NCBI GenBank assembly: GCA_041660065.1
Contig: JBAZXC010000003.1
Coordinates: 1,495 to 65,494 of the forward strand
Origin: Parcubacteria group bacterium
Lineage (GTDB): Bacteria; Patescibacteriota; Minisyncoccia; Moranbacterales; GCA-2747515
Direction of reading: 5' to 3'
Length of the DNA: 64,000 nucleotides
The position numbers and the translations under genes are program-made. Of this stretch, positions 9,076 to 31,647 are shown in pieces; position 1 is the stretch's first letter, and every line of letters starts with the position of its first letter. The notes under the pieces were generated by a model that was not told the origin of the DNA, ran no database searches, and saw only the letters and a program-made list of their open reading frames with translations.

Positions 9076-9220
9076 ACTGCTATGCTTTATAAAATTTGCA
9101 ATAGTGATAGACTGGTTATGAGACCAGTTTTTTAAATAAGAGTGGCCTAGAATTCCTTACAAACACTTATATAAGGGTCGATGATTTAAAAAGCAATTGA
9201 ATTAAGAGAAGAAAAGTTAT

Positions 9221-16009: not shown

Positions 16010-16087
16010 TCGCACTCTTGATTAAAAGTGCACACAAGCCCAAACAAAGGCCTAGTCTTGTCTTTTATGCTCAAGCACGGGACTATT

Positions 16088-17608
16088 TTATTTTTTCAAT
16101 AAGGTTCTGACTTCTTCCATAACGTGGAGCAATTTTCCAGTTTTCTGGTAAGCAATGACCCCTGCAAAGGGGTTTTTTGTTTCAAATACTAAAATTTTTC
16201 CTTGTAACGAAAAGTTCTGAAATACGAAATTGATGAGTTGTGTTTTCTCCTCTGGTTCCGCAACTTGAAAAATCTCCCATGACTTCTGAGATAAGTCTAT
16301 AATAGTACCAGCTGTAATATAGAAGTTCTGGTTTGCTTTGCTATGATCTTCTAATTGCTCCATTAAGTCCTGTTCTTGTAATTTATAGTCATTGCAGCGC
16401 TTATCATAATCTTCAGTTGTTATACGTCCATCCAATCGATCCTCGTACATCACTTTATATCGATTTCGGATTTTACTGAGCTTATGCTCTAATGTATTTT
16501 TATTTTGTATAAAGTATTCTTGCTCTGAATCGTGAATTCGTCGCATTTCGGTAGTTAGTTTATCCAAGGATTTTTTTGTGAGTTTCATATTTTGAAACTC
16601 TTGTTTGATTTGCAAAATCAAATCTTTTTCTCGTATCCAAACAACGTTTGTGCAATTTCCATGGTAATTTGTACAATGATAGTAAATGTATTTTCCCTTC
16701 TTAATTTCTGGAGAAATTGCGCATCCACATTCTGCGCATTTTACAAGTCCCCGAAAAATGTATGGCTTGTTGGTTCGCTTGTAGTTTTGTTTGTTATATC
16801 CAGCAATGACTTTTTGAACTTTTTCAAAAAGATGTCTCGGGACGACCGTGTCATATCTATGTTTGTAAATTTTTCCATTATAAAGCATTTCCCCGTGATA
16901 GAATGAATCTTTGAGTATCTTGTGAATTTGACTGGCTGTAACTGGTTTATTGCTTGGATAATTTGTAAGACCTCTCTTATTCATTTCTTTTGCAAGTGAT
17001 TTTGCAGAATATCCGCCAGCGGCATAAAGTTCAAATGCTTTTAGAATATAGTGACTGCGCTCTTCGTCAATAACAATATCTTTTTTACCATCACTCAATG
17101 TGATATTTTTGTATCCAATGTGAGCTTTCCCAGGCAGCTCACCGTTGTTTAGTTTTTCTCGTAAACTACGCTTTACGTTATCGCCAAGTTGTAGGACATA
17201 ACTTCTTGCAAACATTACTCCCATATCCCAACGCAATAGGTCCGCGCTGTTTGAATCTTTGTTGAGAATGAGGTTTTCACGTAAAAAATGCAATTCCAAT
17301 TTTTCTTGTTTGCGAAAATCATCCAAAATAACAGATTCCTTGAAGCCTCTTTGTAAGCGATCAATGGTATCAGTGATCAATGCAATTGGTTCTTTGGATT
17401 TTTTGATGATCTCAATGATGCTGGAAAATTCGTTGCGAACATCCTTTGTTGATGATTCTGTAATCTCAAACACTTCATCAACAAGAAGATTTCTATATTC
17501 GCAATATTCTCTCATACGACGAACTTGTGATGGTATTGATTGCCCCTCTTCCATTTGCTCTTTTGTGGATACACGAGCAAGTATCAATGCTTTCATAAAT
17601 TTTTTCAT
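16088..17608 (-). CDS. large serine recombinase (second copy, different sequence from 4159-5760)
   Basis: N-terminal 'ALILARVSTKEQMEEGQSIPSQ' with the catalytic Ser context, then 'IALITDTIDRLQRGFKESV'. Zinc ribbon 'CAECGCAISPEIKKGKYIYYHCTNYHGNC'. Confidence 0.8.
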   Translation of the reverse strand: MKKFMKALILARVSTKEQMEEGQSIPSQVRRMREYCEYRNLLVDEVFEITESSTKDVRNEFSSIIEIIKKSKEPIALITDTIDRLQRGFKESVILDDFRKQEKLELHFLRENLILNKDSNSADLLRWDMGVMFARSYVLQLGDNVKRSLREKLNNGELPGKAHIGYKNITLSDGKKDIVIDEERSHYILKAFELYAAGGYSAKSLAKEMNKRGLTNYPSNKPVTASQIHKILKDSFYHGEMLYNGKIYKHRYDTVVPRHLFEKVQKVIAGYNKQNYKRTNKPYIFRGLVKCAECGCAISPEIKKGKYIYYHCTNYHGNCTNVVWIREKDLILQIKQEFQNMKLTKKSLDKLTTEMRRIHDSEQEYFIQNKNTLEHKLSKIRNRYKVMYEDRLDGRITTEDYDKRCNDYKLQEQDLMEQLEDHSKANQNFYITAGTIIDLSQKSWEIFQVAEPEEKTQLINFVFQNFSLQGKILVFETKNPFAGVIAYQKTGKLLHVMEEVRTLLKK

Positions 17609-17629
17609 AGTGAATTATAAATACTAAAA

Positions 17630-17724
17630 GGACGGTTCTAGCTTACCCAATAAATCCAAGGAAATACTGGTAGAACCGCCCTTTGAGTAGGACGATGTCC
17701 TTGAATTTATTCTATTGGGTAAGC
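17630..17724. repeat. nested inverted-repeat site between the serine recombinase and the tyrosine integrase; contains ACGGTTCTAG and CCCAATAA half-sites
   Basis: gcttacccaataaatccaagga (17641-17662) pairs with tccttgaatttattctattgggtaagc (17698-17724). ggacggttctagc pairs with ctggtagaaccgccc. The half-site pair recurs in inverted orientation at 31562-31585. Confidence 0.45.
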
Positions 17725-17764
17725 AATGAAATTATACAGTAAGAAAGTGTTTTTTGGTAGGTCT

Positions 17765-18844
17765 CTATTTTATGAGCAATGCATTTCTCACTGCTTTGCC
17801 GAGTTCCTCATTTGATATGTTTATACTCAGTCCATTATTTTTCAGATTTTTCATAGCTTTTACCCGTTCAACGGCCTCAATGGGGGTTAGGGAGCCGTAG
17901 CCGTATGAGCCAAATGTTGTACCGATATGTTCATGTCCAAGTACGAGGCTGATAGCGCGCTTATCCGCTTCAGTCAATCCGAGTTCACTCATAAATGCAA
18001 CAGCGGAATGGCGAAATGAATGAGGATTGTAATAGGGAACATTTGCTTCCTTGCATCTCTCTTGTATGATTTTTCGCGCAGGGTTTGATGATTGCCAAAA
18101 TTCATCCGAGACTTTTTTGAGTGAGAAATCTTGTGTTGCTGGGAATATTGGCTTTTTGCTCCCAAAGCCCTTTTCTTCTGTAAGATAGGAATACCATTCA
18201 AGAAAAATTCTCTCACCATCATCCCAGCCAATGGGAAAAAATGTTGATATAATTTTTTTTGAGTTTTTTGTCTTGACGCCCATTGCGGGGCTCTGTTCGA
18301 TGTGGAGTTTGTGTTTGTCAAATGCTTGCATAGGTAGAGATACAACGGCACTGATGCGCATGCCTGTCAAGATGAGGAATGCAATCATTGCTCTATCGCG
18401 CAGGGCAACCTCGTGATTTCCCGAGATGCTCTGGACAATTGATTTGATTTCCTCAAGTGTTGGAATATCTTTTTCCGTTTTTTCAAGTGCGATGCTCGTT
18501 TCTTTCTTTGAAAGGCGCAGGTAGTCAAGGTCCGTTTTCTTGATTTTATCATAGAATGGTTGATCACTAAGCCATAAAAAGAAGCGTTTAGTGTGTCTGA
18601 GAATGTCATATTGATTTGAGAGTGAAGTGTTATTCTTATCAGCCTCTCGCTTGAGGTATTTTTTGAACTCATCACATAAATCCCGATCAAACTCTGCAAA
18701 ATCAGAATTTTCAAAACACACTTGCCACTTGTAGATGCACTGCGCGTATTTATTGATCGTGCTTTCTGCAAAGCCTTTTGCGCTACGACAATGATTGAAA
18801 TATTCACGTTTTGCCGCCTCATTCTTTATGATCGAATTGGTCAT
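17765..18844 (-). CDS. tyrosine-type site-specific integrase/recombinase
   Basis: C-terminal catalytic region 'HSFRHSAVAFMSELG...LVLGHEHIGTTFGSYGY' with the R..H..R..Y pattern. N-terminal SAM-like DNA-binding region. Confidence 0.85.
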   Translation of the reverse strand: MTNSIIKNEAAKREYFNHCRSAKGFAESTINKYAQCIYKWQVCFENSDFAEFDRDLCDEFKKYLKREADKNNTSLSNQYDILRHTKRFFLWLSDQPFYDKIKKTDLDYLRLSKKETSIALEKTEKDIPTLEEIKSIVQSISGNHEVALRDRAMIAFLILTGMRISAVVSLPMQAFDKHKLHIEQSPAMGVKTKNSKKIISTFFPIGWDDGERIFLEWYSYLTEEKGFGSKKPIFPATQDFSLKKVSDEFWQSSNPARKIIQERCKEANVPYYNPHSFRHSAVAFMSELGLTEADKRAISLVLGHEHIGTTFGSYGYGSLTPIEAVERVKAMKNLKNNGLSINISNEELGKAVRNALLIK

Positions 18845-18912
18845 ATTAGTGTTGTTATCAAATTATGGACATTCGGACATTTATCTAATCTTAGATAAAA
18901 CATGGTAGTACA

Positions 18913-19296
18913 TTATGGCGAACGTATTTGGACGTTTGCCTTTCCGATTGTTTTACAGATATGAGAACCACATTTTTTGCACAATGAATGACGAATATTG
19001 CCAACTGCACGGATGTTTTTTTCTTTTGCTTTGACACCTTTTTTGCACTTGAAACATGGATAGCTTCCTCCTGACATATTCCATTTGCGCGTTTTGATTT
19101 TATTATGCAGATAGTCAGCAACAGCGTCTCCCATAAAAAAATATGGTTTTGAGCCTGGATTATAAGGCGCAAGACCATCTGCAATCCAGCGTTCTACTGT
19201 TTTGCGAGTTTTGTCGCAGATAAACGCCACGTCATCGATGGTGTATGATTGGTATTTACTAAATCTATTCTTTTTTGATGTAGTTATTTTTTTCAT
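18913..19296 (-). CDS. excisionase-like HTH DNA-binding protein with a C-terminal zinc ribbon
   Basis: 'YTIDDVAFICDKTRKTVERWIADGL' is an HTH of the MerR/Xis type. 'CFKCKKG...CKKCGSHIC' is the zinc ribbon. It is adjacent to the integrase. Confidence 0.5.
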   Translation of the reverse strand: MKKITTSKKNRFSKYQSYTIDDVAFICDKTRKTVERWIADGLAPYNPGSKPYFFMGDAVADYLHNKIKTRKWNMSGGSYPCFKCKKGVKAKEKNIRAVGNIRHSLCKKCGSHICKTIGKANVQIRSP

Positions 19297-19356
19297 AGAG
19301 TTTTTTGAGGAAAAATATTTTGATCTGCCATAAAGACACAGGAAACTCTCAAAAAC

Positions 19357-19548
19357 CTATGAGATGTATGGCAGGTCAGAATATTTTTCTTTCTTGATGA
19401 GTGTTTTTTCCTTTTCGCGTTTATTTATGCGATAGAGCAGGTCGAAAAAACCGACAAAGTTTTGATTTGCTTCGATAACTTCCTCATTCGATAATTTCTT
19501 TTGAGAGAGTTCCTCATAGAATGGTTTTTCGTCTTCAATTTTTTGCAT
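19357..19548 (-). CDS. hypothetical small protein
   Basis: 63-aa ORF only. Confidence 0.2.
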   Translation of the reverse strand: MQKIEDEKPFYEELSQKKLSNEEVIEANQNFVGFFDLLYRINKREKEKTLIKKEKYSDLPYIS

Positions 19549-19656
19549 AAATAAAAACTGATCTTATCCTTGAGACCAGTTTATATCTTTCAAGTTTAGT
19601 AAATTTTAGTAAATTTTAGTACTTTTTTACCTAATTTCAGTATATTCCACCATATT

Positions 19657-20367
19657 CTAGTAATAATTTAGCTGAAGACATTTATTCTTAATTGTTAGAA
19701 ACTCGCTAAATCCAGTCCTCTTAAGAATTTGTGCATTTATGTGGTTTTTTGCGCTATAAAATGATTTTTCATTCAATTTATGGGTCTCGTCCGTTCTAGT
19801 AATAATTTCATTTGCGGTTTGGAAATCCAATAATTGTCCAGGTGAATAATATTCATCATGCGTATCAAATAATGCACTGAGGATGTAATAAGAGGCGGTG
19901 CCAATTTCAAAATAAATAAAAGAGTCAGAAATTTTAAGTGCACCATTTGCAGTATTGAAAGAGATTTGTATATTTTGTGATTTTGTATTTTCATACAAAG
20001 AATATATATCGGAAATAGATTTTCTATTTACTTTAAGTGTGTAGTTTTGAGGCTTAGTAGATATAACTCCTCCAAATGCGGCTTTTGTTTTTATGAATGA
20101 ATCAACGAGTGGCGAATCGGAATACATGCTTCTTTCTATAGTAATAATACTTGCATTTTGCAGAAATCTTAAAACACGTCTTTGGTCGTCTGGTTTTGGC
20201 AGAGTCGAATCGGCGCTTTGAATACGGATTTCTATCTTATCACTGATGCTTGCATCAATTTCTTTTCGGATTTCTTGCAACATCCAAAAGACAGCAATCT
20301 TGAATTCTGCGCTTTGCGTTCTGATAATTTCTTTAAGATCCATATATTGAGAGTTATTTATATCCAT
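19657..20367 (-). CDS. hypothetical protein (236 aa)
   Basis: ORF, no motif recognised. Confidence 0.4.
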   Translation of the reverse strand: MDINNSQYMDLKEIIRTQSAEFKIAVFWMLQEIRKEIDASISDKIEIRIQSADSTLPKPDDQRRVLRFLQNASIITIERSMYSDSPLVDSFIKTKAAFGGVISTKPQNYTLKVNRKSISDIYSLYENTKSQNIQISFNTANGALKISDSFIYFEIGTASYYILSALFDTHDEYYSPGQLLDFQTANEIITRTDETHKLNEKSFYSAKNHINAQILKRTGFSEFLTIKNKCLQLNYY

Positions 20368-20432
20368 TTTGCTTCATTTGAGAGAAAAAATCAATATTAT
20401 TGCTTGAATTTTATCTTTTTAGATGGTACATT

Positions 20433-20562
20433 GGTAATGTCACACCCAACTGAATATTTAGCACGAATGCCGTTTTTGGCGACGAGGTTGTTCTTGGAAA
20501 GGGGCAACCTTGCTAAAAACAATTGAGCGCAACCTCGTGTTCGTGTTCAGTTGGGTGTGACA
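20433..20562. repeat. about 130-nt nested inverted-repeat structure
   Basis: Outer 16-bp inverted repeat gtcacacccaactgaa / ttcagttgggtgtgac and inner inverted repeat gacgaggttg / caacctcgtg. It sits in a divergent intergenic region and has the same architecture as 8314-8430. Confidence 0.4.
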
Positions 20563-20630
20563 ACCAGCAGGTTGTCCTTTTTTGTTTGGATAATCTTGTT
20601 GAAATAAAAATAATTTGTAATAAAAATGCT

Positions 20631-21497
20631 ATGGATAGCAATATGCCTATTGATGAGGCTCAAAAAAATCAAGAACAAAAGTGGTACAAAAAATGGTGGG
20701 TTATACTAATTGCAATAATAGTAATGTTGCCGTTTTTTTGGTTTTTTATTCCAGTTGGACTGATTGTTCTCATTTGGACTAGACAATGGAGTAATGGCGG
20801 TAAAATCGCCGCTACGATCGGTTTCATTTTATTTTTGATGACAGTCCTGGTTATAATTGGTTCTAATGCTTCAACAAAAACACAAACAACTTCAAAGGAA
20901 CAAAAGCAGGAAATTGCGAAAAATTTGCCTATTGATGATAAAAAAGAAGATTCAAATACTGGTAGTATGGCACAGGTTGTTGAACAGAATGATCAAATTA
21001 CGGAGGAAAAGAATGCAATTTCAGAAAACAGTTCGGAAATAGCCAGTCAAAATGAAAAAGTTGAAGAAGTTCAGGATATTCAAAAAACACCGAACTATGA
21101 AGTTGTTTATACAATAAATAATAAATATGGGCAAGGTGAGATTGATTTTGGAATTTTGATTGATCCAGTCGATGTACAAAGTAACTATTTCAAAGAAGAT
21201 ATAAAATTTATTGTGACAAAAGTTGTACAAGAGAAAGGAAAAAAAGTTTCTATTGATATATTAGATGATAAAAAGACTCTTGGTTTGTACCAGAAAAGTC
21301 ACTATGCTCAAAATACTTTAGGGAGAATTCTTACTCAAGATGAAATGGAGTTGATCGGAGATCACCTTGTTGCAAGTTTTTCTGGACAGTTTGGAGAAGA
21401 AATTGTACAAAATTCATTGTCGTTTTTTCCAGCAACTGGGTCCGATAATCCAAGAGTTGGTAAATATGTCGAAACTCTCAAATTTGAGGTGAAATGA
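20631..21497 (+). CDS. membrane-anchored protein with an acidic low-complexity region
   Basis: Two TM segments 'WVILIAIIVMLPFFWFFIPVGLIVLIW' and 'IGFILFLMTVLVIIG', then a Glu/Gln-rich tract. The start was set at the Met after the hairpin. Confidence 0.45.
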   Translation: MDSNMPIDEAQKNQEQKWYKKWWVILIAIIVMLPFFWFFIPVGLIVLIWTRQWSNGGKIAATIGFILFLMTVLVIIGSNASTKTQTTSKEQKQEIAKNLPIDDKKEDSNTGSMAQVVEQNDQITEEKNAISENSSEIASQNEKVEEVQDIQKTPNYEVVYTINNKYGQGEIDFGILIDPVDVQSNYFKEDIKFIVTKVVQEKGKKVSIDILDDKKTLGLYQKSHYAQNTLGRILTQDEMELIGDHLVASFSGQFGEEIVQNSLSFFPATGSDNPRVGKYVETLKFEVK

Positions 21498-21608
21498 TGT
21501 AAAAAAAGAATTTTTTTCCGATATGGTTATTTCAGTCGTTTATTCAAGGCTGCTTGATTGAACGTTCTTTTGATTGTACACTAAATTTGTATATCAGTTA
21601 TTACTTTT

Positions 21609-22520
21609 GTGATGAATAATAGAAAAAATAAGAAAAAAATAGGTGAGAATTATACTTTTATAGATTTGTTTGCTGGGATAGGGGGATTTCACCAGGCTTT
21701 TCATAATATCGGAGCTGAGTGTGTGTTTTCTTCAGAATGGGATGAAAATGCCAGAAAAACGTACGAACTCAATTTCAAAAAGATTTCTCCAAATCTTTTT
21801 GAAAAAAATAAATTTATAGGGGATATAAACTCAATCAAAAACATCAAAAAGGAGATTCCTGATTTTGACATTTTGACGGGAGGATTTCCTTGCCAGCCCT
21901 TTAGTCACGCTGGACACAGAAAGGGTTTTTTGGATACCAGAGGCACTTTATTTTTCAATATAGTCGAAATATTGAGACAAAAAAAACCAAAAGCGTTTTT
22001 TATAGAAAATGTCAGGGGATTATTGAATCATGATGATGGCAATACTTTTTCAGTAATCAAAAAAACAATAGAAGAAGAACTGAACTATTCTTTTTATCCT
22101 GAGATTATTAGAGCCTCCGATTTTGGTTTGCCCCAGCATAGACCTCGTTTATTTATGGTTGGCTTCAAAAATAAAAAGATAGAATTTGAGTTTCCAGATC
22201 CAGTTGGCTTGAAAATGAACATGTCTGACATATGGGGAGGAAAATGCAGTAGAGATGTGGGATTTACTCTCAGATGCGGTGGTAGGGGGTCTGGTTTGAA
22301 TGACAGGAGAAATTGGGACACATATTTGGTTGACGGTAAAGAAAGAAGATTGTCTTCTGCGGAGGGGAAAAAAATGATGGGATTTCCGAAAGGTTTCAAA
22401 TTTCCAGTTTCTGAAACCCAAGCAATGAGGCAGCTTGGGAATGCTGTAGCTGTGCCAGCCATTCAAGCTGTTGCACAGGCAATAATTGAATCATTGAACT
22501 CTTATGATAAAAGGAAATAA
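21609..22520 (+). CDS. DNA (cytosine-5)-methyltransferase with a short target-recognition region
   Basis: Motif I 'FIDLFAGIGGFHQAF', motif IV 'GGFPCQPFSHAG', motif VI 'ENVRGLL', motif X 'RQLGNAVAVP'. Confidence 0.85.
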   Translation: MMNNRKNKKKIGENYTFIDLFAGIGGFHQAFHNIGAECVFSSEWDENARKTYELNFKKISPNLFEKNKFIGDINSIKNIKKEIPDFDILTGGFPCQPFSHAGHRKGFLDTRGTLFFNIVEILRQKKPKAFFIENVRGLLNHDDGNTFSVIKKTIEEELNYSFYPEIIRASDFGLPQHRPRLFMVGFKNKKIEFEFPDPVGLKMNMSDIWGGKCSRDVGFTLRCGGRGSGLNDRRNWDTYLVDGKERRLSSAEGKKMMGFPKGFKFPVSETQAMRQLGNAVAVPAIQAVAQAIIESLNSYDKRK

Positions 22521-23586
22521 AGGAGAATGGAGTGAATTTTATGCTTTTCTCAAAATATTGACTGATGGCAAAATGTTTACTGCAGATAAAGATCTCGAAA
22601 TATTGAGAGATAATTATTATATTGTTTTGAAAATTATTAGAGAGGAAACTAATGGGAAGAAATCTTATGATATTTCTAAGCGGGATGGCAAAGTTGTGAT
22701 TTTTGATGAAATGATGAAATTGAGTGATGTTGTTGATTTGGAAAAAATAAAAAAAAGAGTTGCGGATATTTTTGATGAAATGAGAAAAGCGAAAGGATCT
22801 ACTTTCCAGATATTACTTGCTGAAGAGGCTATGAGGGATTTGCATTGTTCCCAGATAAAAGCATCAAGCGGACGAAAGGCGGACTTAATGATTGTTTTGC
22901 ACGACAAAAAATCACCAGCCTTTCCTGAATTGGGGTTTAGCGTGAAATCCATGCTCGGATCACCATCAACACTTTTGAATGCCTCAGGGGCGACAAATTT
23001 CGTCTATAAGGTTGCTGAAAGCGGCAAGTCTGATGAAGAGCTTGATGTGTGTAACAAATCGCTTACAGTTCGAGATAGGGCCGAATTTATCTATGATGCA
23101 GGTGGCCGTTTTGAATATTGTGGGATGGACAGTGCTAAATTTAGAAAAAACCTTAGAAAGATTGATTCGAATTTTCCAGAAATAATTGCAGAAATTGTAA
23201 GGCATTACTATGGTGGCAGGGGAAATAGCATTTCTGATTTGGTTGATCATATTTCGAAGGATGTTGATTTTTGCAAAAAGCTTGATTTAGACAAAAGTGA
23301 CTTTATTTTTAAGGTAAAGAGATTTTTATCAGATGTTGCTTTGGGCATGACTCCAAGCAGAGAATGGGATGGACATGCCAGTGCACACGGTGGATACATA
23401 ATTGTAAAAGAAAATGGAGAAATAATCTGTTATCATATCTACAATCGAGACGAATTTGAGGACTATCTTTATAATAATACAAAGCTGGATACTCCAAGTA
23501 CGACACGACATAAATTTGGCGACGTTTATGATGAAAATGGAGAGAAAAAAATCAAATATAATTTGCAGATTAGATTTATAAAATAA
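22504..23586 (+). CDS. probable type II restriction endonuclease partnered with the C5-MTase
   Basis: Its start overlaps the MTase 3' end by 17 nt, and it is followed immediately by vsr. No catalytic motif was confidently identified, so the call rests on context. Confidence 0.5.
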   Translation: MIKGNKGEWSEFYAFLKILTDGKMFTADKDLEILRDNYYIVLKIIREETNGKKSYDISKRDGKVVIFDEMMKLSDVVDLEKIKKRVADIFDEMRKAKGSTFQILLAEEAMRDLHCSQIKASSGRKADLMIVLHDKKSPAFPELGFSVKSMLGSPSTLLNASGATNFVYKVAESGKSDEELDVCNKSLTVRDRAEFIYDAGGRFEYCGMDSAKFRKNLRKIDSNFPEIIAEIVRHYYGGRGNSISDLVDHISKDVDFCKKLDLDKSDFIFKVKRFLSDVALGMTPSREWDGHASAHGGYIIVKENGEIICYHIYNRDEFEDYLYNNTKLDTPSTTRHKFGDVYDENGEKKIKYNLQIRFIK

Positions 23587-23590
23587 GCAA

Positions 23591-24019
23591 ATGGTAGATA
23601 TTTTTTCAAAAGAAAAAAGGTCCGAAATAATGTCGAAAATAAGATCAAAAGAAACCAAAATGGAGGTAAAATTCAGAAAAAAACTTTGGCATTCTGGATT
23701 TCGATATCGAAAGAACGCGTCTGGTTATTTTGGAAAACCAGATATTTTACTTAAAAAATATAGAACAGTTATTTTCATCGATTCTTGTTTCTGGCATGGA
23801 TGCAAAAAACATTTCAAACTTCCTTCAACAAGACAGAAATTTTGGAGTGAAAAGATGGTACAAAACCAAAAAAGAGATAAGGACGTTACAGGTTATTATA
23901 AAAAAAATGGTTGGAAAATTATCCGAATTTGGGAGCATGATTTGAAGAGGAATTTTCAGAAATCGTTTGACAAAACTAGTTATTTATTATTGAAAGATGA
24001 AAGTGCACGAATAAAGTAA
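23591..24019 (+). CDS. vsr: very-short-patch repair endonuclease Vsr
   Basis: 'FRYRKNASGYFGKPDILLKKYRTVIFIDSCFWHGC' is the Vsr signature, including the FxDGCFWHG-like block. Confidence 0.8.
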   Translation: MVDIFSKEKRSEIMSKIRSKETKMEVKFRKKLWHSGFRYRKNASGYFGKPDILLKKYRTVIFIDSCFWHGCKKHFKLPSTRQKFWSEKMVQNQKRDKDVTGYYKKNGWKIIRIWEHDLKRNFQKSFDKTSYLLLKDESARIK

Positions 24020-24108
24020 TGGAAATACAATTATTTTTGATCAAGAAATCGGAATTTTGATTTTTTGGAAATATCTGTTATATTGAAATTATTAAGATAT
24101 TACTATAT

Positions 24109-24606
24109 ATGGCTACAAAATACTTAAGGGCTATCGAGGTGGCGGAGTATTTTATCGCAAGAGCGTGTAAGGAAGGGGATGAAATGACGCCAAAAAAATT
24201 ACAAAAGATGCTTTATTATGCTCAAGCGTGGTTTTTGGTTTTTGAAAACAGGAGGCTTTTTGATGACAAAATAGAGGCGTGGATGCATGGACCGGCGATC
24301 TACTCCATTTATCAAGAGTATAAGATGTTCGGTTTTTTTCCAATTAGAAAGGAAATTGATAAGGATTTTTTGGATAAAATATCAGATAATACGAAGAGGT
24401 TTTTATCGGATATTTGGAAAGTGTATGGAAAATATGATGCTGATTATTTAGAAATCTTATCACATAACGAAAAACCTTGGCGTGTTGCACGCGCTGGAGT
24501 TGGCGAGTTCAATGCTTCAAAAAATGAGATTGATACAAAATTGATGAAAAGTTTTTATAAAGAACTGCTTGCTAAAACAACGGATGATGTCCAAGAATCG
24601 AAATAA
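24109..24606 (+). CDS. Panacea-domain (DUF4065, SocA/PanA-like) putative antitoxin
   Basis: 'KLQKMLYYAQAWFLVFENRRLFDDKIEAWMHGPAIYSIYQEY' matches the DUF4065 core pattern. Confidence 0.65.
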   Translation: MATKYLRAIEVAEYFIARACKEGDEMTPKKLQKMLYYAQAWFLVFENRRLFDDKIEAWMHGPAIYSIYQEYKMFGFFPIRKEIDKDFLDKISDNTKRFLSDIWKVYGKYDADYLEILSHNEKPWRVARAGVGEFNASKNEIDTKLMKSFYKELLAKTTDDVQESK

Positions 24607-25099
24607 CAAAAGAAAACAGGAGAGAAGACTTCAAAAAAAGAAGTCTTCTTTGATAGAGTGCGTTGTTGGTGTACAACGAGATGATGTAAATGAGGGTAGA
24701 GTTCCTGAAAGTGTTGCCAGTATGGGTGATGTATTTGATGATAGTGAAGTTTATTCTATAAGTTTTTCTCAATATGCCAGTAATGAATGTGAGATAGACG
24801 CAATGATTAGCAATGGAGATAAATGTTCAGGTCGAGCATTGCAACTATTGAAACTGATTGGATCGCACTGTAGCAACCTTAGGACGCTTAAACATCTTGG
24901 TTTTGAAACAAAAAAGATTGCAAACGATAATCAGTATAAAAGGTTATATAATAAACTGAAAATGTGCGGTGTGGACATAAAGGAAACTACGATTTATGAA
25001 TCATACATTTCAAATCAAGGTGGTAGAATATTTTTTTGGGTGTATGGACAAAAAAAGATGATATATATTGTTGCTATACGAAGAAATCACTACAAATAA
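24569..25099 (+). CDS. putative toxin partner, with a RelE/ParE/Gp49-like C-terminus; the true start probably lies further in (Met at 24722 or 24803)
   Basis: C-terminal 'GGRIFFWVYGQKKMIYIVAIRRNHYK' resembles the RelE/HigB/Gp49 C-terminal beta-strands. It overlaps the Panacea gene's end. Confidence 0.35.
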   Translation: MLKQRMMSKNRNNKRKQERRLQKKKSSLIECVVGVQRDDVNEGRVPESVASMGDVFDDSEVYSISFSQYASNECEIDAMISNGDKCSGRALQLLKLIGSHCSNLRTLKHLGFETKKIANDNQYKRLYNKLKMCGVDIKETTIYESYISNQGGRIFFWVYGQKKMIYIVAIRRNHYK

Positions 25100-25124
25100 T
25101 TTTTTGTAAGAATAATTGTAAAAT

Positions 25125-27119
25125 ATGCCAATAACTCAAAGTCAAACATTCTATGTAAAAAAAATATATCTGAAAAATTTTAAGAAATTCAGTAATGCTG
25201 AAATTGATTTTGGGGCTGGACTTAATTTCTTGATAGGTCCGAACAACGCTGGAAAAAGTACAATTCTTCAAGCTGTGGATATTGTTGTGGGGGATACGTG
25301 GCTTTCTGAGGATATGCTTGACCATTCTTTTTTTTATGAAGAGGAGAATAACTTTGTTGTTTGTGTGGAAATTGCCTTTCCAAACATCGGTTGTTCATCT
25401 AATAGAAACAGAATAAACTTCATTAGAAATCTGAAGCTTGCAAAAGGCAATGTTCGATCAATGGTGTATGGACAATTTTCAAATGCCACACCTCGAGAAT
25501 TTCTTGATGGAGATGAAATAGATAGCATAACAGATGTAGTTGGGGAGGATATAAATATTGAGTCCGTACATTTCTTTACTGTTGCTAAAAGAGAAGATGG
25601 TAGTCTGAGTGTTGAAAATTTCGTCGTACTTAATTTGTGTGAGCCAGTTTATAAAAATGATGGCAACTATACATCCATTCAAATTTCATTGACCAAGTGG
25701 GTGAGGAGTAATCTGATTTCATTTTTGTTTATACCAGCTGCCAGATCTGAAAATCGACAAATATTTCAAGTGGCACAACACACGTGGCTTGGCAAATATT
25801 TGAAAATTCTACAAAAAGAAAAAAATAGTGAAGTCGAAAGTTATTTTGATCAATGTCATTTGCAATCATTTCCATTGGAATTTGATAATTCTGTAAAAGA
25901 TATTCTCAAGGATCTCTTTGGTGATATAAGTGAATTGTCACTTCACACCTTTGATCATGAGCATTGTGACTCATTGTATAAATACGCTCATGTTTTTTTA
26001 TCTGATCCTTTTCTTGCTGAAATTGATAAGAAGGGTCACGGTATCCAATCTGCGAGTGCTATAGCATTGTTTTTGGGCTTTCTTGAACGAGAGGCTCTCA
26101 ATCATCCAGAATATAGCACATCTCGGAGTGGATCCGCTCCATCACACTGGGCTACGATTTTACAGATAGAAGAGCCTGAATCACACTTTCATCCTCCAGC
26201 GCGAATAAAGCTCGTATCTATTCTTAAACAGAAATTTGCTGACTCTGGGGCGCAAGTAATTGTTTCGACGCATGATGAGGGATTTGTTAAGTGGCCTTTT
26301 ATGAATGGCTCAAATTTGATATTCCCAGGTGCGATTGATCCAGACGGAAAGATCAAATCTATACTATTTCATGATGGATCGACAGATAGCACTATGGAAA
26401 TAAACTCTCGTATATTACGGTTTCAAGCGTCAACAATTTTTTCACAAAGAGTGTTGATAGTTGAGGGGTGCGAGGCGGTGTGTCTAAATGCTATTTTCAT
26501 GAGATTATTGAATGAAGACTTAGAATCTAATGCAATTACAATGGCTCAATCAGTATCTTCGCAACCAAGAACTGATCACGGAGATAGTGGCAATTTACAG
26601 CCAGCTGGTGGCGCATCTCAAATACCTGATACAGTTCAATTATATAAGCAATTGGGAATAAAAAGTGCATGTCTGATTGATATCGATTGTTTATTCAATG
26701 GTTCGATTGGAAGAATTATTGAGTCATTTGGTGGGGTACCAAGGGCTTTCATTTTTGATGAGGTGCTTACACAAGAAGAGGTGAGAGGGGGTAGTGGGAT
26801 GGTATCAGCTCAGGATATGAGAAGTATTATAGCGGCTAGCCCAGATAAAGAGCGTAGATTTAGTGATTTAGTCGAACGATTATCAAATATTGGAATTTTT
26901 GTATATAACAAAGGTGATTTTGAAGGAAATTTTACGGATAGATTTGTGAATAATTATATTAGTCGGAACAATAAAATTATTAAGGAGGCATTGTGCTATG
27001 CTATAAAAAGTAAAGCGGAAATGAGTAATACATTTGATGTGGATTGTTTGCAAAGTAATGCAAGGCAAGATTTAGAACAAGCTTTGGCATGCATAAAAGC
27101 TTTCTTTAGCACTGACTGA
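25125..27119 (+). CDS. OLD-family nuclease (N-terminal ABC-type ATPase plus C-terminal TOPRIM), class-1/GajA-like
   Basis: Walker A 'LIGPNNAGKSTILQA', Walker B/H-loop 'ILQIEEPESHFHP...VIVSTHDEGFV', TOPRIM 'RVLIVEGCEAVCLNAIF' and DxD 'ACLIDIDC'. Confidence 0.7.
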   Translation: MPITQSQTFYVKKIYLKNFKKFSNAEIDFGAGLNFLIGPNNAGKSTILQAVDIVVGDTWLSEDMLDHSFFYEEENNFVVCVEIAFPNIGCSSNRNRINFIRNLKLAKGNVRSMVYGQFSNATPREFLDGDEIDSITDVVGEDINIESVHFFTVAKREDGSLSVENFVVLNLCEPVYKNDGNYTSIQISLTKWVRSNLISFLFIPAARSENRQIFQVAQHTWLGKYLKILQKEKNSEVESYFDQCHLQSFPLEFDNSVKDILKDLFGDISELSLHTFDHEHCDSLYKYAHVFLSDPFLAEIDKKGHGIQSASAIALFLGFLEREALNHPEYSTSRSGSAPSHWATILQIEEPESHFHPPARIKLVSILKQKFADSGAQVIVSTHDEGFVKWPFMNGSNLIFPGAIDPDGKIKSILFHDGSTDSTMEINSRILRFQASTIFSQRVLIVEGCEAVCLNAIFMRLLNEDLESNAITMAQSVSSQPRTDHGDSGNLQPAGGASQIPDTVQLYKQLGIKSACLIDIDCLFNGSIGRIIESFGGVPRAFIFDEVLTQEEVRGGSGMVSAQDMRSIIAASPDKERRFSDLVERLSNIGIFVYNKGDFEGNFTDRFVNNYISRNNKIIKEALCYAIKSKAEMSNTFDVDCLQSNARQDLEQALACIKAFFSTD

Positions 27120-27222
27120 ATTGTAGCAGTCGTATTTCTTGTGATATTTCTCTCATATTTAAGTTGCGGAACATGTCCATTAGCGGGAGCCCCATACAAG
27201 ATGACATTTGAACTAAACAAGA

Positions 27223-27260
27223 AAAGAGCTTCCTGCATTTATGCAAGAAGCTCTTTTTTT
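27223..27260. terminator. bidirectional terminator hairpin between convergent genes
   Basis: agagcttcctgcat tt atgcaagaagctct, flanked by A- and T-runs. Confidence 0.5.
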
Positions 27261-28404
27261 ATGCTATTGCCTCAGTTGCTATTGGCAAAGCGTTTTCGGG
27301 TAGTTTGTGCGCATTGATCAGTTTCATTGGAATCCAATCTTTTGGTGCACGGTCTAATGGGATGTTGCCACAGCCAGGTTTTCTTCTCCAATGGGCTCTT
27401 CTCCAATGCACACGTTTTTCCTGTGATGCCTTAGATGATTTGATGAAGCTAACCAATTGGTCGATTTTTTCTTGTTTCATCTTGAACTTAGCTGATACAG
27501 TGAATAAATCAGATGTTTGATCAATGAATGCATTTTCTAAAGAAACTCGTTTTTTTGAACTTGATTTCATTTTTTCATTTTTCTTTGTTGTACTTGCTGG
27601 AAAATTTTCCAGATAAATACATAAGTTTATGAAAATATGAAACGCAGAGTTTATTGCAAAATCTTTAAGCGGAGCACTTATATCGAGAATGTTAGCATTT
27701 AGAAATGTCTTAATCACAAAATTTTCGGACATCTCATTTGGTTTGAAATACATTATCGGAAGTGTCATTTTGCCATCTTTGTCATAGCTAAGATGTTTTT
27801 CAAAAAAACACTCAATTTCATGCTCTGATGCCTGTCTCCTTATTAAATTTAACAGCTCTTTTCTTTCGGTTTTTTTGAGTCTTTTACATCTAGAAAGACT
27901 TGGTGGCAAAAGACGTAGCTCCCATAAATCGGAAGAATCAGCAGAAGGAAGAAACTTGCCGATATTGCTCACAATAATTGAATCGTAAGCTGTTCCATCA
28001 TAGGATACCAACAAATCGGTTAATGTGATAATGAATGAATCAAAAGGAAATCTAATTTCCTTCCACCGAACTGCGTTAATGGTTGTCGCGTCTAATAGAT
28101 TTTGGACGTTTGAGGGTAAGTGAAATATCCTTCTGGAGGAAAAATTCCATGATAATATGGAAAATGGAATAAATCCATTTGCTTCACTTTCTTCATTATA
28201 ATTTGGTATGTAATTCAAAAATCTTTTTTCAAAGAGATCTTTTTTTGTTAGATTTAAAAGACATTCTCTGAAAGAATCAAAATCTCTGTGATTTTGAGGC
28301 AATGAATTTTGCAAATTCATTGATGTTGCACTTCGAAGGAAACACAAATTTTCCCAGTGGGATAATAAGTGGTCGATTCTCTGTAATCCAACATTTGAAG
28401 ACAT
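27259..28404 (-). CDS. hypothetical protein (381 aa), convergent with the OLD gene
   Basis: ORF, no motif recognised. Confidence 0.4.
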   Translation of the reverse strand: MSSNVGLQRIDHLLSHWENLCFLRSATSMNLQNSLPQNHRDFDSFRECLLNLTKKDLFEKRFLNYIPNYNEESEANGFIPFSILSWNFSSRRIFHLPSNVQNLLDATTINAVRWKEIRFPFDSFIITLTDLLVSYDGTAYDSIIVSNIGKFLPSADSSDLWELRLLPPSLSRCKRLKKTERKELLNLIRRQASEHEIECFFEKHLSYDKDGKMTLPIMYFKPNEMSENFVIKTFLNANILDISAPLKDFAINSAFHIFINLCIYLENFPASTTKKNEKMKSSSKKRVSLENAFIDQTSDLFTVSAKFKMKQEKIDQLVSFIKSSKASQEKRVHWRRAHWRRKPGCGNIPLDRAPKDWIPMKLINAHKLPENALPIATEAIA

Positions 28405-28754
28405 GATTGTTCCTCCAGTGTATTTGAATTGTATTATTCTTCTGTTAATTTACATGCAAAAAGCAACTGAGAATGATATCGTATTTTAACTATTTAGTCA
28501 ATCATTTTGTATAGGATTCTTGCAAATCAATTCGAATGTCGTCCAGGATGCGGAACAAACACATTTTAAGGCTTTTTAAAGCCTTTTTTTGTTGGTTGTA
28601 TTTGATTAAAATATAGTTATATGGTAGAATTTTTTTTTAGTTCTTTTCATATAAACTTTTCACAAGCTGACAATAAAGTAATCAAGTTATTTATTATTTT
28701 ATTGTCAGTTTGTACAAGAAGCATTCAATTAACCATCATTTGGTGGAGGAGAAA

Positions 28755-29141
28755 ATGAACAGGAGTAAAGTGAACGACTCAAGGCTATGGGAAATATGGC
28801 AAAAATCGGGAGCGATTGGAACAATCAAAACCGCACGGCATCGAAAGAGAATGATTAAAGCTATTAATGACGCTCGGGGAGTGGAAATCGTCAGAGATAG
28901 TGAATCAATTCGTTTTATCGGCCATTTTGGCTTGGGAAACAAGTCTGAAATGATCTTGACGTTAGCCGATGCGACCAATCTTCTGAACTCTGGTCTATTT
29001 GAAACATCTGGAGCATATGGCAAAGTACTTATCGAGGCCAAAATGGTTCGTGCCTGGTTTAAGCCCGTTCAAGGCAATGATCTTATTTGTCTCGGGACTC
29101 GTGATTTCGTCAGCAATTTGAGACAGATTCTCTTAAATTAA
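28755..29141 (+). CDS. hypothetical protein
   Basis: ORF with SD 'ggtggaggag' 6 nt upstream of the internal ATG at 28755. The track ORF starts earlier at 28710. Confidence 0.35.
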   Translation: MNRSKVNDSRLWEIWQKSGAIGTIKTARHRKRMIKAINDARGVEIVRDSESIRFIGHFGLGNKSEMILTLADATNLLNSGLFETSGAYGKVLIEAKMVRAWFKPVQGNDLICLGTRDFVSNLRQILLN

Positions 29142-29434
29142 GAATCACGCATGATGTGAAGTCGAGGACCGTCATTGATTGGGGTCACAACTATATAACT
29201 CCAGAAATATGGCGGCCCGTTGCAACCCAACTGGTCGCCTTTTTATTTCCCAACAGCCAACATTTCCAATGATTGCATTATTTTTTTAAGTCCAGAGTTT
29301 TGAACATATCAACCAACTGGAGCAATGACATTGACAAGGGTGTAGCATTTGTGTTACGCTCTTTTGTTGAGTTATTTCATAAAATTTTTTTCTATAGAAA
29401 GGGCTAGACGATAAACAAACTTCCAGAGGAGGAA

Positions 29435-29692
29435 TTGATTATGCCGGCACTGGTAAAAGTCATAAAAAAGAATGGTACTATGTACAAGGGTTTCCATTTT
29501 GGTAGCGAAGGAGGATTGATTTATTTGATCAATCCATGGGAATTGACAGAGGATGAAGATAATGAAAATCTCATGCCGGGCGACCATATGGAAAGCCCGG
29601 TCGGAAAAGAAATTGTTGGCACAGCGGGAGAAGAATTTAGGTTTATTCAAATCCCTGTTGTTGATATAGAAACAATTGAATCCACAGATTGA
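29435..29692 (+). CDS. hypothetical small acidic protein
   Basis: SD 'agaggagga' upstream, 85 aa. Confidence 0.35.
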   Translation: MIMPALVKVIKKNGTMYKGFHFGSEGGLIYLINPWELTEDEDNENLMPGDHMESPVGKEIVGTAGEEFRFIQIPVVDIETIESTD

Positions 29693-29862
29693 TTTTAAGC
29701 TCGCCACGGAAAGCTTTCCGTTTAGGTGAGCTTTCTTTTTGGCTAGGTTTTTCTATGACTGTCCTAGTAATTCATCAAGATTTTTTTAAGCATTTATTTC
29801 GGGTGTCCGAACGGGATTTAAACTGTTTTGCGCTTAATGTTTATTTATGATACTTTTTAATT

Positions 29863-31464
29863 ATGAAATACAAAAAATCAATCATTGTAATTTTATTGAT
29901 TCTAATCCTTCTTGCAAGCGCGGGATTTTTTGTAGTGTATCGCACCAAGACTCAAGTGAAAGATCTTTTCCGGATGAACAAAGAATCGCAAGAAGCAGGT
30001 TATTACATGGGTGATTTTGAATTCAAAATGATGGGGGTTTTGTATTGGCTGGATAAAGGAGAATACTATCGTGCCCTAGTGCAGCTTAACAAACTGCATA
30101 ATCAGTTCGAAACCAGAGAAGGACTAATCAAATTGCCCGAGTTTAATAATAAAGCGGAAGAAATTGAGTTTTATTTGAATTTACAAAATCCCAAGACAGG
30201 TGCTTTCATTGACGATATTTATCCGTATGCAGTTTACAATGAAGTTACAGAAAATGCGATAAACAATCTTGACGCGCTGACAAAAGAAACTGGACAGCCA
30301 CTCAAATTAAAATATCCTTTAAAATATCTCGACGAAATCAATACACCGGAAAAATTAAAAGCATTTCTCGATGATGTTGCTTATGTCAGTTGGATTTCAA
30401 CGAAGTTTCCGCAAACGTCTTATGTTTTTGCCAGAAGCATATTAAGTTATGCCAATGGCGAGGGAATGATGGAAGAAAAAGGTCTTTATAAATTTTCTGA
30501 CGAATGGAAGCAGGCCTTGCTCCAATGGTTTTATGACAATCAGGATCCGGAAACAGGATTCTGGGGACCGAGATCGAGAGCGGATCATAAATTATTAAAA
30601 AAAGATTTAACCAATACCGCTTCAGTTATTAAAGCGTTCGTTGATAAGGATGGCAATAATATTTATGAGACCTTCCCTTTACGATATGGAAGTCAAATGT
30701 TCAAGACTGCTCTTGAAGTTATGTCTGAGCCAACGCCAGATGTCGAGGATTTAGATGAATGGCACGAATGGGAATTAAAGATGGGGAAAGGCACTTATAT
30801 GATAACTAGATATATATGGCAATATGCTTCAACGGAAGACAAGGTTGAGGCCAAAAAAATACTTGAAAATCTTGTTAAAACCAACTTTGCCGAGTGTTAT
30901 GTTCCAGAGGAAGGGGCATTTAGCTATTATCCGCATGGAGAGCATGCCACTCTGGACGGCAGCGGATTTTTTTCAATCTTCAAGGATATTGGAGCATTGT
31001 CTAATGAGAAACAAAAGAAACTTTGGGGAGAACCGGAAAAAATAATAACTGATCTGGGAAATCGAAAAGTGTCGATGCTTACAGAAAAAGATTTAGATCT
31101 GATTGCAACAAAAGAAGACGTCAATTCTATTCGTATTTATAAAACTGTTGCGGATTATAATAATTTGATGTTAGGTGTTTCGGTGATTGTTTATCCTAAT
31201 GAATCATCCATTCCAGATATTATGGATCTGACTGCTAAAATGAAAACATGGCTCAACACAACTCCACAGACAATGGGAAATTGGACATCAAAAGAGGAGA
31301 TGAAGCAAGAGTTGGAGGCTGTTCAATTTGAAGAAGCTCCGGTCTATGAAAAAGAAACAGCAATTGAAAATATGAATTCAATCCTGCAGGCAAACGGAAA
31401 AGTAGTGGTCATCGGATTTGATACCTTGCAAATTCCGAGATATAAAATAGTGTTTGAGAAATAA
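29863..31464 (+). CDS. N-terminally membrane-anchored hypothetical protein (533 aa)
   Basis: N-terminal 'IIVILLILILLASAGFFVVY' TM. No catalytic motif recognised. Confidence 0.5.
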   Translation: MKYKKSIIVILLILILLASAGFFVVYRTKTQVKDLFRMNKESQEAGYYMGDFEFKMMGVLYWLDKGEYYRALVQLNKLHNQFETREGLIKLPEFNNKAEEIEFYLNLQNPKTGAFIDDIYPYAVYNEVTENAINNLDALTKETGQPLKLKYPLKYLDEINTPEKLKAFLDDVAYVSWISTKFPQTSYVFARSILSYANGEGMMEEKGLYKFSDEWKQALLQWFYDNQDPETGFWGPRSRADHKLLKKDLTNTASVIKAFVDKDGNNIYETFPLRYGSQMFKTALEVMSEPTPDVEDLDEWHEWELKMGKGTYMITRYIWQYASTEDKVEAKKILENLVKTNFAECYVPEEGAFSYYPHGEHATLDGSGFFSIFKDIGALSNEKQKKLWGEPEKIITDLGNRKVSMLTEKDLDLIATKEDVNSIRIYKTVADYNNLMLGVSVIVYPNESSIPDIMDLTAKMKTWLNTTPQTMGNWTSKEEMKQELEAVQFEEAPVYEKETAIENMNSILQANGKVVVIGFDTLQIPRYKIVFEK

Positions 31465-31529
31465 AATTCATTCCTAATTTTGATTCCAACCGTATGAAAG
31501 GTACACCATTTGCCGAGCATGTCTGGAAA

Positions 31530-31560
31530 CTGCCCATATGAAGGGGCAGTTTTTCTTTTT
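31530..31560 (+). terminator. rho-independent terminator
   Basis: ctgccc atatgaag gggcag followed by tttttcttttt. Confidence 0.5.
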
Positions 31561-31561
31561 C

Positions 31562-31593
31562 TTATTGGGCTATTTCTAGAACCGTTCTAGCGA
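31562..31593. repeat. inverted copy of the ACGGTTCTAG / CCCAATAA site found at 17632-17653; near-palindrome CTAGAACCGTTCTAG
   Basis: The reverse complement of 31562-31585 is ACGGTTCTAG-aaatagc-CCCAATAA. The left site is ACGGTTCTAG-ctta-CCCAATAA. Confidence 0.45.
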
Positions 31594-31647
31594 CTCATTT
31601 TTTATATCCAAGTGGGGCGATAGAACTTTTTGTGGTAAAATATTGAT

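Follow-up and report, generated by a model that had tools for sequence, protein, structure and literature searches.

Tandem tRNA-Asn islands in a Parcubacteria group bacterium, with a candidate leader RNA upstream of a large serine recombinase gene and a related sequence at the island tip

Introduction

Islands of the Islander type and the tycheposons of Prochlorococcus insert at the 3' part of tRNA genes, have a recombinase beside the tRNA and a variable cargo of defense genes, and are displaced distally by successive insertions that leave partial tRNA copies between elements (10.1101/2020.12.28.424599; PMC4383910). The preprint on tycheposons describes the same tandem, push-outward model for islands that target tRNA genes (10.1101/2020.12.28.424599). 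Here we analyze a locus of this kind in 64,000 nucleotides of a Parcubacteria group bacterium (assembly GCA_041660065.1, contig JBAZXC010000003.1, positions 1,495 to 65,494; hereafter the window), with emphasis on the spacer between the genes of a large serine recombinase (LSR2) and a tyrosine recombinase (Int) and on a matching sequence, the right site, at the far end of the inserted DNA. The locus shares the features named above and departs from described islands in three respects: a large serine recombinase (LSR) takes the place beside the tRNA that a tyrosine integrase usually has; this LSR belongs to one conserved module with a Xer-like tyrosine recombinase and an Xis-like gene; and the distal end has no long direct repeat in the form of a displaced tRNA fragment.

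Like the large serine integrases of A118/LI, phiC31, and Bxb1, LSR2 has Resolvase, Recombinase, and zinc-ribbon domains, and a 2-bp crossover would be in keeping with island ends that, in the window, lack long direct repeats. The right site consists of two blocks within a 25-bp half-site, a layout like that of the regions contacted by the recombinase domain and the zinc ribbon in serine integrase att sites (PMC3783163). Unlike in described att pairs, a partner arm was not found at the decayed tRNA-side junction and the center of the palindrome is odd. A further difference from serine integrases is a near copy of the arm within the RNA-structured leader that precedes the recombinase gene. To our knowledge such a near copy has not been described for any serine integrase, and a literature search also gave no match.

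The leader itself resembles attenuators and the expression platforms of riboswitches, in that it has two exclusive, conserved folds and a GC-rich stem followed by a U-tract upstream of the gene predicted to be regulated, and it shares covariation and a strand-specific fold with leader RNAs of the terminator/antiterminator type. Unlike these, it belongs to no Rfam family, no leader peptide, ligand pocket, or binding protein was identified in it, the regulated gene would encode a serine integrase, and a tyrosine recombinase is encoded upstream. Invertible segments (Hin/Gin/Cin, Fim, and the R64 shufflon) likewise have short inverted sites close to their recombinase genes, and the initial annotation of the locus, which saw the two sites as inverted copies delimiting an integrase plus defense-gene module, suggested inversion sites or terminal inverted repeats. 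In contrast to Hin, Fim, and the shufflon, the segment in the window is 14 kb long and holds a recombinase and all cargo, assemblies show no heterogeneity in its orientation, L040, the one relative with sufficient upstream DNA for the comparison, has no partner site, and the left site has a structure of the RNA type.

A Leader and Its Echo at the Island Tip

The Int–LSR2 spacer is 156 bp in length, from the start of LSR2 at 17608 to the stop of the tyrosine recombinase gene at 17765, and the left site is located in it, as first described. We aligned the spacer of the window with those of four distinct relatives (LSRs 66–73% identical). The five distinct sequences define a conserved structured leader of ~110 nt (17618–17730, minus strand). 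On the sense strand of Int and LSR2 its boxes occur in the order B1 (17713–17724 in plus coordinates, as for all boxes), C1 (17698–17708), X (17689–17696), A1 (17669–17681), C2 (17652–17662), B2 (17641–17651), and A2 (17630–17642), followed by the U-tract UUUU (17626–17629). The left site, which reads ACGGTTCTAG-ctta-CCCAATAA on the plus strand at 17632–17653 exactly as reported, is leader A2 plus B2 read on that strand. A palindrome of 95 bp had been described around it as nested; the palindrome is present, and its arms are two interleaved pairs ordered B1..A1..B2-A2.

Outside the leader, its B2–A2 segment has a single match in the window, the right site. At 31562–31585 the minus strand reads ACGGTTCTAG-aaatag-CCCAATAA, so that the match given earlier holds and the spacer is 6 nt instead of the 7 nt (aaatagc) first assigned. 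On the plus strand the words of the leader recur as TTATTGGG, a gap of 4–6 nt across the two sites, and CTAGAACCGT. Together with a palindromic arm, GTTCTAGC, they form the outermost ~30 bp of the distal island (TTATTGGG-ctattt-CTAGAACCGT plus the arm; 31562–31591, plus strand), a candidate P arm of attR. We also recovered the palindrome noted there before, which is perfect (CTAGAAC-C-GTTCTAG, 31576–31590), and the terminator that precedes it, the intrinsic terminator of the last island gene (31525–31554, plus strand), for which a terminator scan found an 11-bp stem and then a T-run. The two sites are genuinely related, and both adjoin recombination functions, as the initial annotation had it.

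The position of the right site relative to host DNA can be fixed independently. In L052, whose SRPBCC gene is 95% identical to that of the window, another gene is upstream of SRPBCC and homology to the window starts at ~31597, which is 6–12 bp past the right site. Because host homology resumes there, the right site is the outermost tip of the insertion, and its placement at a true island end is borne out.

By itself, the motif pair is not beyond chance. Generic clusters of a 10-mer and an 8-mer with a flexible gap occur 64 times in the real window versus a mean of 24.5 in Markov-1 simulations, ~11 of which per window are inverted, and a generic local-alignment score computed for all island spacers does not rank the left/right spacer pair above others. 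In its context, which is a conserved leader and the tip of an island, the match is non-random. When the conserved leader is used as a fixed query, a 10+8 match is found anywhere in only 11 of 400 random sequences (2.8%), and the real match falls within the last ~40 bp of inserted DNA, an end set independently by the L052 homology. Because the leader match is rare and falls in this terminal stretch, the joint chance of the match and its position is ~2e-5. The word CGGTTCTA has three occurrences in 64 kb (A1, A2, and the right site), all inside these two spacers, and TACCCAATA is present in the window solely as a palindromic pair in the left spacer. A motif scan of a viral collection returned four matches, all unrelated and consistent with chance, and a search of the viral collection for LSR2 returned one distant relative (34% identity).

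Among the readings considered, we favor one that combines tandem tRNA-Asn islands, a switch-like leader, and a right site that is an att arm echoing the leader, to which we assign somewhat less than an even chance of being correct as a whole. Specifically, we infer that the right site is the island-side arm of the attR of LSR2 and that one island protein, most plausibly LSR2, recognizes both the terminus and its own leader. With the crossover placed at ~31586–31587, the A box is ~1–10 bp and the B box ~17–24 bp from the center. In serine integrases an attP half-site measures 25 bp; the recombinase domain contacts its inner part and the zinc-ribbon motif occupies bp 16–24 (PMC3783163). The layout of boxes in the right site fits such a half-site. 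LSR2 would bind the terminus for recombination and its own leader or promoter region for autoregulation, and attB would be tRNA-Asn joined directly to ...TCATTTTTTATATCC. A bolder version, which we regard as improbable, makes the leader dual-purpose: the RNA would gate read-through into LSR2, the DNA of B2–A2 would mimic the terminal att arm, and integrase free of island ends would bind the leader and stop its own synthesis; in this version, the combination of a Xer-like tyrosine recombinase and a tRNA-abutting LSR would also be an undescribed module widespread in the candidate phyla radiation (CPR).

Several observations weigh against the att-arm reading. Relative L040, with ~8.7 kb upstream of Int, has no far-end copy of its own B2–A2 in searches by exact words, local alignment, or a fuzzy two-box pattern (relatives have their own versions of the segment, for example TTGGATAA..CAGACCGT); the terminal echo may be specific to the island in the window, or the far end of L040 may lie outside its locus. 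On the tRNA side, inverted local alignment of the LSR2 3'-end region with the right spacer gave p = 0.22, in a test that is weak with this junction decayed, and the resemblance is limited to AAGGTTCT..CCATAA in the LSR2 3'-end region versus ACGGTTCT..CCCAATAA. The ends of L045 likewise gave no signal of inverted half-sites (p = 0.68). The spacing of boxes differs by 2 nt between the two sites versus 5 nt between the zinc-ribbon motifs of attP and attB, and the 7-1-7 palindrome has an odd center that is unusual for the 2-bp staggered crossover of serine recombinases. A covariance model of the leader does not recognize a leader copy in the right site, and the statistics of covariation in the leader are limited by five sequences, three of which are mutually close.

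The main rival to shared recognition by one protein is a resemblance that has no present function. The right-terminal 24 nt would then be a historical leftover, such as a piece of the leader copied in a past recombination or repair event, or a lineage-specific accident, and the leader would be a regulatory RNA for LSR2. The lack of a terminal copy in L040 is as expected for a leftover, as are the unremarkable generic alignment scores, the abundance of 10+8 pairs across the window, and the abrupt end of similarity on both sides of the 24 nt, beyond which the covariance model has no extended match. On the other hand, a match to the leader was found in just 2.8% of random windows and the real one is exactly at the island tip. 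The adjoining perfect palindrome reuses the word of the A box, which suggests a site for a dimeric protein and not debris, and both boxes exactly match the variant of the leader that is specific to the window, so the copy would be recent or under selection. We consider a leftover possible, if rather unlikely.

Two Exclusive Folds in the Leader

Covariation in the leader is extensive. Boxes B1 and B2 form an 11-bp stem in which four pairs are changed on both sides (GCTTACCCAAT/ATTGGGTAAGC in the window, GCTTATCCAA/TTGGATAAGC in L040, and GTTAACCTAAT/ATTAGGTTAAC in L049). In B1:B2 and the inner hairpin taken together, 98.9% of cells are paired and five pairs have double-sided changes, a result reached in 0 of 500 shuffles; slid registers pair at 28–50% and a wrong-register control pairs at 35% in that helix. 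RNAalifold reports nine pairs with double-sided compensatory changes. The A1:A2 stem covaries with a compensated indel (UUCUA:UAGAA in the window, UCUG:CAGA in L040, and UCCUG:CAGGA in L049), has a G·U pair and a C-C mismatch whose positions do not change, and runs directly into UUUU in all five sequences. The C stems are wholly different in sequence among relatives and keep their complementarity.

Two folds are predicted in every one of the five sequences. A long hairpin (B1-C1-[X:A1]-C2-B2) has a computed energy of -25.5 to -31.9 kcal/mol, and an alternative A1:A2 stem with UUUU has one of -21.8 to -24.9 kcal/mol. The two are mutually exclusive because A1 is used in both. The alternative stem was skipped by our simple terminator scan because its loop is longer than the 8-nt limit of the scan. 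In all five sequences the sense strand folds 7–12 kcal/mol better than the antisense strand, and among the conserved pairs of the leader are U·G pairs, with replacements of U·G by C·G. The U·G pairs and the better folding of the sense strand point to an RNA or, at minimum, to a structure specific to one strand.

These features bear directly on the alternative that the left element acts as DNA, either as clustered inverted sites for a protein or as a folded single-strand (attC-like) site for an Xer/integron-like Int. Co-varying inverted repeats are also expected for the sites of dimeric proteins, the right site resembles a protein-binding palindrome, and Int scores against XerA and integron-integrase profiles, below the cutoff. 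A strand-specific fold of single-stranded DNA would fit the data on U·G pairs, strand bias, the U-tract, and the C stems as well. Opposed to a DNA-level role are these same four observations: U·G pairs, including those with changes to C·G, would be A·C mismatches on the opposite strand, the sense strand is the better folder in 5/5 cases, the U-tract directly follows A1:A2 in 5/5 cases, and the C stems change sequence entirely while preserving pairing. We regard a DNA-level role as unlikely.

A search of Rfam gave no match to the leader; in it, only tRNA reached the gathering score, and the best hits below threshold had E > 1 and were to irrelevant families. The covariance model built from the alignment, when used to search 19 sources, matched solely the Int–LSR2 spacers on which it was trained. 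Relative L049 has a different subtype of Int (46% identity) and has kept the leader, which indicates that the leader travels with LSR2.

We infer that the leader exerts terminator/antiterminator-type control over read-through into LSR2, with a computed structure and a function suggested by it. The switch would decide whether transcription of the Xis–Int operon reads through into LSR2. As a conserved leader that precedes a serine integrase gene and is absent from Rfam, it is a candidate new cis-regulatory RNA.

Two Islands in Tandem at tRNA-Asn

The inserted DNA is ~27.4 kb in size (4172 to ~31596) and is located between tRNA-Asn and a conserved host gene that encodes an SRPBCC protein. It consists of two tandem islands: A, from LSR1 to a STAND NTPase (~4172–16090), and B (~16090–31596). 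From the left, the order is dnaG, sigA, a 142-aa open reading frame (ORF), a GIY-YIG gene, tRNA-Asn, island A, island B, SRPBCC, and ordinary genes. By its sigA protein, the window belongs to a CPR bacterium of the Parcubacteria/Moranbacteria group. Within island B the order is LSR2, the spacer, the tyrosine recombinase, an HTH_17 Xis-like gene, and defense cargo. Each island has a site-specific recombinase at its tRNA-proximal end, with LSR1 overlapping tRNA-Asn and LSR2 abutting a decayed tRNA remnant.

The chromosomal integration target, tRNA-Asn (GTT; 4099–4171, plus strand; identified by ARAGORN and Rfam), overlaps with its 3' end the last codons of LSR1 (4159–5760, minus strand), and the remnant, a decayed 3' half of tRNA-Asn (AAGGTTCTGACTTCTTCCATAACGTGGAGCA; 16101–16131, plus strand), overlaps the 3' end of LSR2 (16088–17608, minus strand). 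Both recombinases have Pfam domains Resolvase, Recombinase, and Zn_ribbon_recom (PF00239, PF07508, and PF13408). In an alignment of the 3' end of LSR2 with those of L040, L042, and L049, an intact tRNA-Asn is present in the relatives at the position homologous to the remnant. Judged by this homology, the remnant is the former tRNA junction of island B and now the junction between islands A and B. Island A would have inserted later at the same tRNA-Asn, displacing island B outward and leaving the decayed 3' half of the tRNA, and it is probably the proximal, newer island.

We recognized no displaced tRNA fragment at the distal ends of the islands in the window, L040, L042, and L045. Serine recombinases require just 2 bp of identity. 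A 5-bp direct repeat, TCATT, is present directly 3' of tRNA-Asn (4172–4176) and at the right junction (31595–31599), and may mark the crossover region or sequence that was originally downstream of the tRNA.

The flanks of the locus have been seen joined. In genome P0246 (gene table only, JGI 3300075153) the GIY-YIG gene is 156 bp upstream of SRPBCC, and this arrangement is that of the left and right flanks of the window joined without an island, an empty site at the level of genes. Two other genomes, L011 and L012, have a different island or none after sigA. An empty site was also sought via OCD homologues in metagenome contigs, the best of which are 64–74% identical and lack synteny. On the right, the host flank comprises the promoter region and gene of SRPBCC (31597–32091, plus strand), with homologues that are 56–95% identical and widespread in Patescibacteria.

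The neighborhood of the tRNA gene has features of its own. Fragments of the promoter and of the tRNA 5' part are duplicated at 3659–4111. A direct repeat of 42 nt, exact in both copies (3712–3753 and 3997–4038), consists of nt 1–13 of tRNA-Asn, a 16-nt palindrome, TCCGCCAGCTGGCGGA, and GGTAGAGCA. The two copies flank a GIY-YIG nuclease ORF (3762–4010; Pfam E = 8.7e-19), and this repeat-flanked ORF looks like a small cassette tied to the tRNA gene. In L042, tRNA-Asn adjoins a palindrome similar to TCCGCCAGCTGGCGGA, and P0246 has a GIY-YIG gene before SRPBCC. In the closest relative strain (sigA 96–98% identical), a different island of the LSR1 type occupies the same locus (L011:5170–8301), with an LSR that is 58% identical to LSR1, a fragment of a second LSR, a Toprim primase, and type I restriction-modification genes; ARAGORN found no intact tRNA-Asn at this locus.

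A Recombination Module Shared by Relatives

Comparison with relatives clarifies which genes belong to island B. In the closest relatives of LSR2 (L040, L042, L048, and L049; 66–73% identity), Int is directly upstream, with a spacer of 130–157 bp (L040 and L041 are Logan contigs SRR31838814_589 and SRR31838815_35146). The 3' end of the LSR overlaps tRNA-Asn in L040, L042, L043, and L049, and the LSR adjoins sigA/dnaG in the first three, which is the same chromosomal site as in the window. Identity of Int to that of the window is 66–69% in L040, L042, and L048 and 44–49% in L003–L009, and, L049 and the distant L010 aside, every relative whose Int is related has an HTH_17 homologue upstream of that gene. 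The genes for Int, HTH_17, and LSR2 are inherited jointly, and no cargo is common to the window and L040, L042, and L048; L045 and L049 share with the window just the generic Panacea and C5-methylase domains. Because the module recurs as a unit in relatives, LSR2 is, on this comparative evidence, part of the same island as Int and the defense genes.

This result changes the boundaries proposed in the initial annotation. There, the left site was the edge of the module and LSR2 was outside it. The left site is instead internal to island B: the Int–spacer–LSR2 arrangement recurs in relatives with different cargo, and L040, L042, and L043 have the same flanks (tRNA-Asn/sigA/dnaG) and another internal boundary, a finding that the initial annotation itself had named as grounds for refutation and that here applies to the left end. 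The site is intact in all relatives and is therefore not a recombinant junction or the end of a transposon. Terminal inverted repeats of a 14-kb unit are not consistent with a left repeat that is internal and intact in relatives, and no other copy of such a unit was found. A split palindromic attP was ruled out on the same ground, the left site being an intact conserved element in relatives.

Inversion of the 14-kb segment between the two sites by the tyrosine or a serine recombinase, as in shufflons or Fim, is very unlikely. The sites are inverted and adjoin two recombinase genes, and Int has a weak NCBIfam match to a tyrosine-type invertase (E = 3.9e-5, far below the cutoff). Yet two independent Logan contigs from the same sample (SRR18595301) cross the right site (L001) and the left site (L002) unbroken and are 100% identical to the window, a weak check of orientation that rests on one sample and on assemblies, not reads. 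Relatives keep the left element without a partner site; L040, the sole relative with substantial cargo DNA, has no second copy. Covariation of the RNA type and a fold specific to one strand account for the left element, and inversion would result in no change of promoter or coding sequence of obvious use. Furthermore, the reaction of large serine recombinases is normally confined to attP and attB as partners (PMC3783163).

Least probable of all is a separate 14-kb element of Int and defense genes, inserted beside LSR2, whose ends would be the two sites, either as terminal inverted repeats or as attL and attR halves from a palindromic attP: joining the sites does yield a palindrome that is close to perfect (TTATTGGG-6-CTAGAAC-C-GTTCTAG-4-CCCAATAA), the 8-bp sequence GTTCTAGC is repeated directly at 17635–17642 and 31584–31591, and Int adjoins the left site with its 3' end toward it, as in lambda-type prophages, but B1-A1-B2-A2 through the start of LSR2 is conserved in four other distinct spacers with different cargo, the Int–LSR gap of LSR1-type relatives is down to 15 bp (L006 and L008) or filled by a small helix-turn-helix (HTH) gene, with no room for an att site, and the identities of Int and LSR2 co-vary as those of one module.

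More distant relatives of Int extend the pattern. In L003–L009, from Saccharibacteria, Paceibacterota, Komeilibacteria, and others, HTH_17 is upstream of Int and a serine recombinase follows. Six of the seven, with L005 as the exception, have a recombinase of the LSR1 type whose 3' end runs into an opposite-strand tRNA gene. LSR1 itself is 34–39% identical to the tRNA-abutting LSRs of L003–L009, and its counterpart at this locus in L011 is 58% identical. A module that recurs across CPR lineages, including a Xer-like tyrosine recombinase and a tRNA-abutting LSR, is out of the ordinary, and in the literature on CPR islands with serine and tyrosine recombinases, or on serine integrases that target tRNA genes, we found no direct precedent.

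Across Saccharibacteria, Paceibacterota, Komeilibacteria, and Moranbacteria (L003–L009, L040–L051, and 16088–19296 of the window) the module has unrelated cargo and the same parts: an HTH_17 Xis-like gene, a Xer-like tyrosine recombinase, a small HTH gene or structured leader, and a large serine recombinase whose last codons overlap an opposite-strand tRNA gene for Ser, Arg, Gln, Asp, or Asn. Directly downstream of Int, L003 (11117–11153), L004, L007, L009, and L045 (7482–7520) have a promoter-like element, TTGC(A/T)ATGTAAAGAAT(A/T)GTAAAGTATAAT. This ATGTAAAGAAT/GTAAAGTATAAT element of LSR1-type relatives and L045 has a direct repeat, GTAAAG, and is conserved beyond the need of a plain promoter.

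Genes and Other Features of the Islands

The recombination genes of island B were classified by profile. Int (17765–18844, minus strand; Pfam Phage_integrase) is Xer-like, with best NCBIfam matches to XerD, XerA, and XerC that are each below the cutoff. The gene upstream of it (18913–19296, minus strand) is excisionase/AlpA-like according to a match to HTH_17 that is also below the cutoff (Pfam E = 4e-4). The best NCBIfam matches of LSR2 are XisF/CcrB-like and under the cutoff, and the LSR2 family is abundant in CPR.

Cargo of island A spans 6018–16009 and includes an AAA_25 ATPase (6018–7073, minus strand; Pfam), a 263-aa ORF (7432–8223, minus strand), and, as its main component, a 2262-aa NTPase of the STAND/NACHT type (9221–16009, plus strand; Pfam). 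PADLOC gave no match to this NTPase, which may be an uncharacterized Avs-like defense protein. The word AAGGTTCTGA occurs exactly twice in the window, at 6003–6012 (minus strand) upstream of LSR1 and, in inverted orientation, at 16101–16110 (plus strand) at the A/B junction; this pair parallels the echo between the LSR2 leader and the island terminus and is marginal (p ~0.06).

Cargo of island B spans 19357–31464, as annotated with Pfam, PADLOC, and the Logan annotation, and includes unknown ORFs. A C5 methylase (21609–22520), an HpaII-type restriction endonuclease (22504–23586), and Vsr (23591–24019) are followed by a Panacea-domain protein with a partner ORF (24109–25099) and an OLD/GajA-class nuclease (25125–27119). 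Next is a 381-aa ORF (27259–28404, minus strand) labeled AcrVA2-like in the Logan annotation of an identical contig (PF26125), a label for which a Pfam scan at E <= 0.001 gave no supporting match; it is a possible anti-defense gene within a defense island. The last gene of island B is a 533-aa ORF of unknown function (29863–31464).

Elsewhere in the window, a long near-perfect inverted repeat (GTCATTCCCGCGGAGGCGGGAATC...; 57681–57710 and 57820–57845, arms ~110 bp apart) could be a structured element or one like a miniature inverted-repeat transposable element.

Implications

Most of the locus is ordinary biology, namely tandem integrative defense islands at a tRNA gene. What is not ordinary is the leader that is absent from Rfam, the two-recombinase module, and the non-random echo of the leader at the island tip, for which we found no description in the literature. 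If our reading is correct, the map of the locus is corrected to two stacked tRNA-Asn islands with boundaries at ~4172, 16090–16100, and 31591–31597.

Gene regulation and the control of mobile elements are little understood in CPR bacteria. The leader, if its predicted role is true, would give them a candidate cis-regulatory RNA of ~110 nt before a serine-integrase gene. The module, with two recombinases and freely exchanged defense cargo, would inform how defense islands move in reduced genomes and might yield tRNA-specific serine integrases. Finding the leader echoed at the island tip suggests the hypothesis that expression of the integrase is coupled to occupancy of att sites, and a leader that is dual-purpose would be a built-in sensor of the state of integration.

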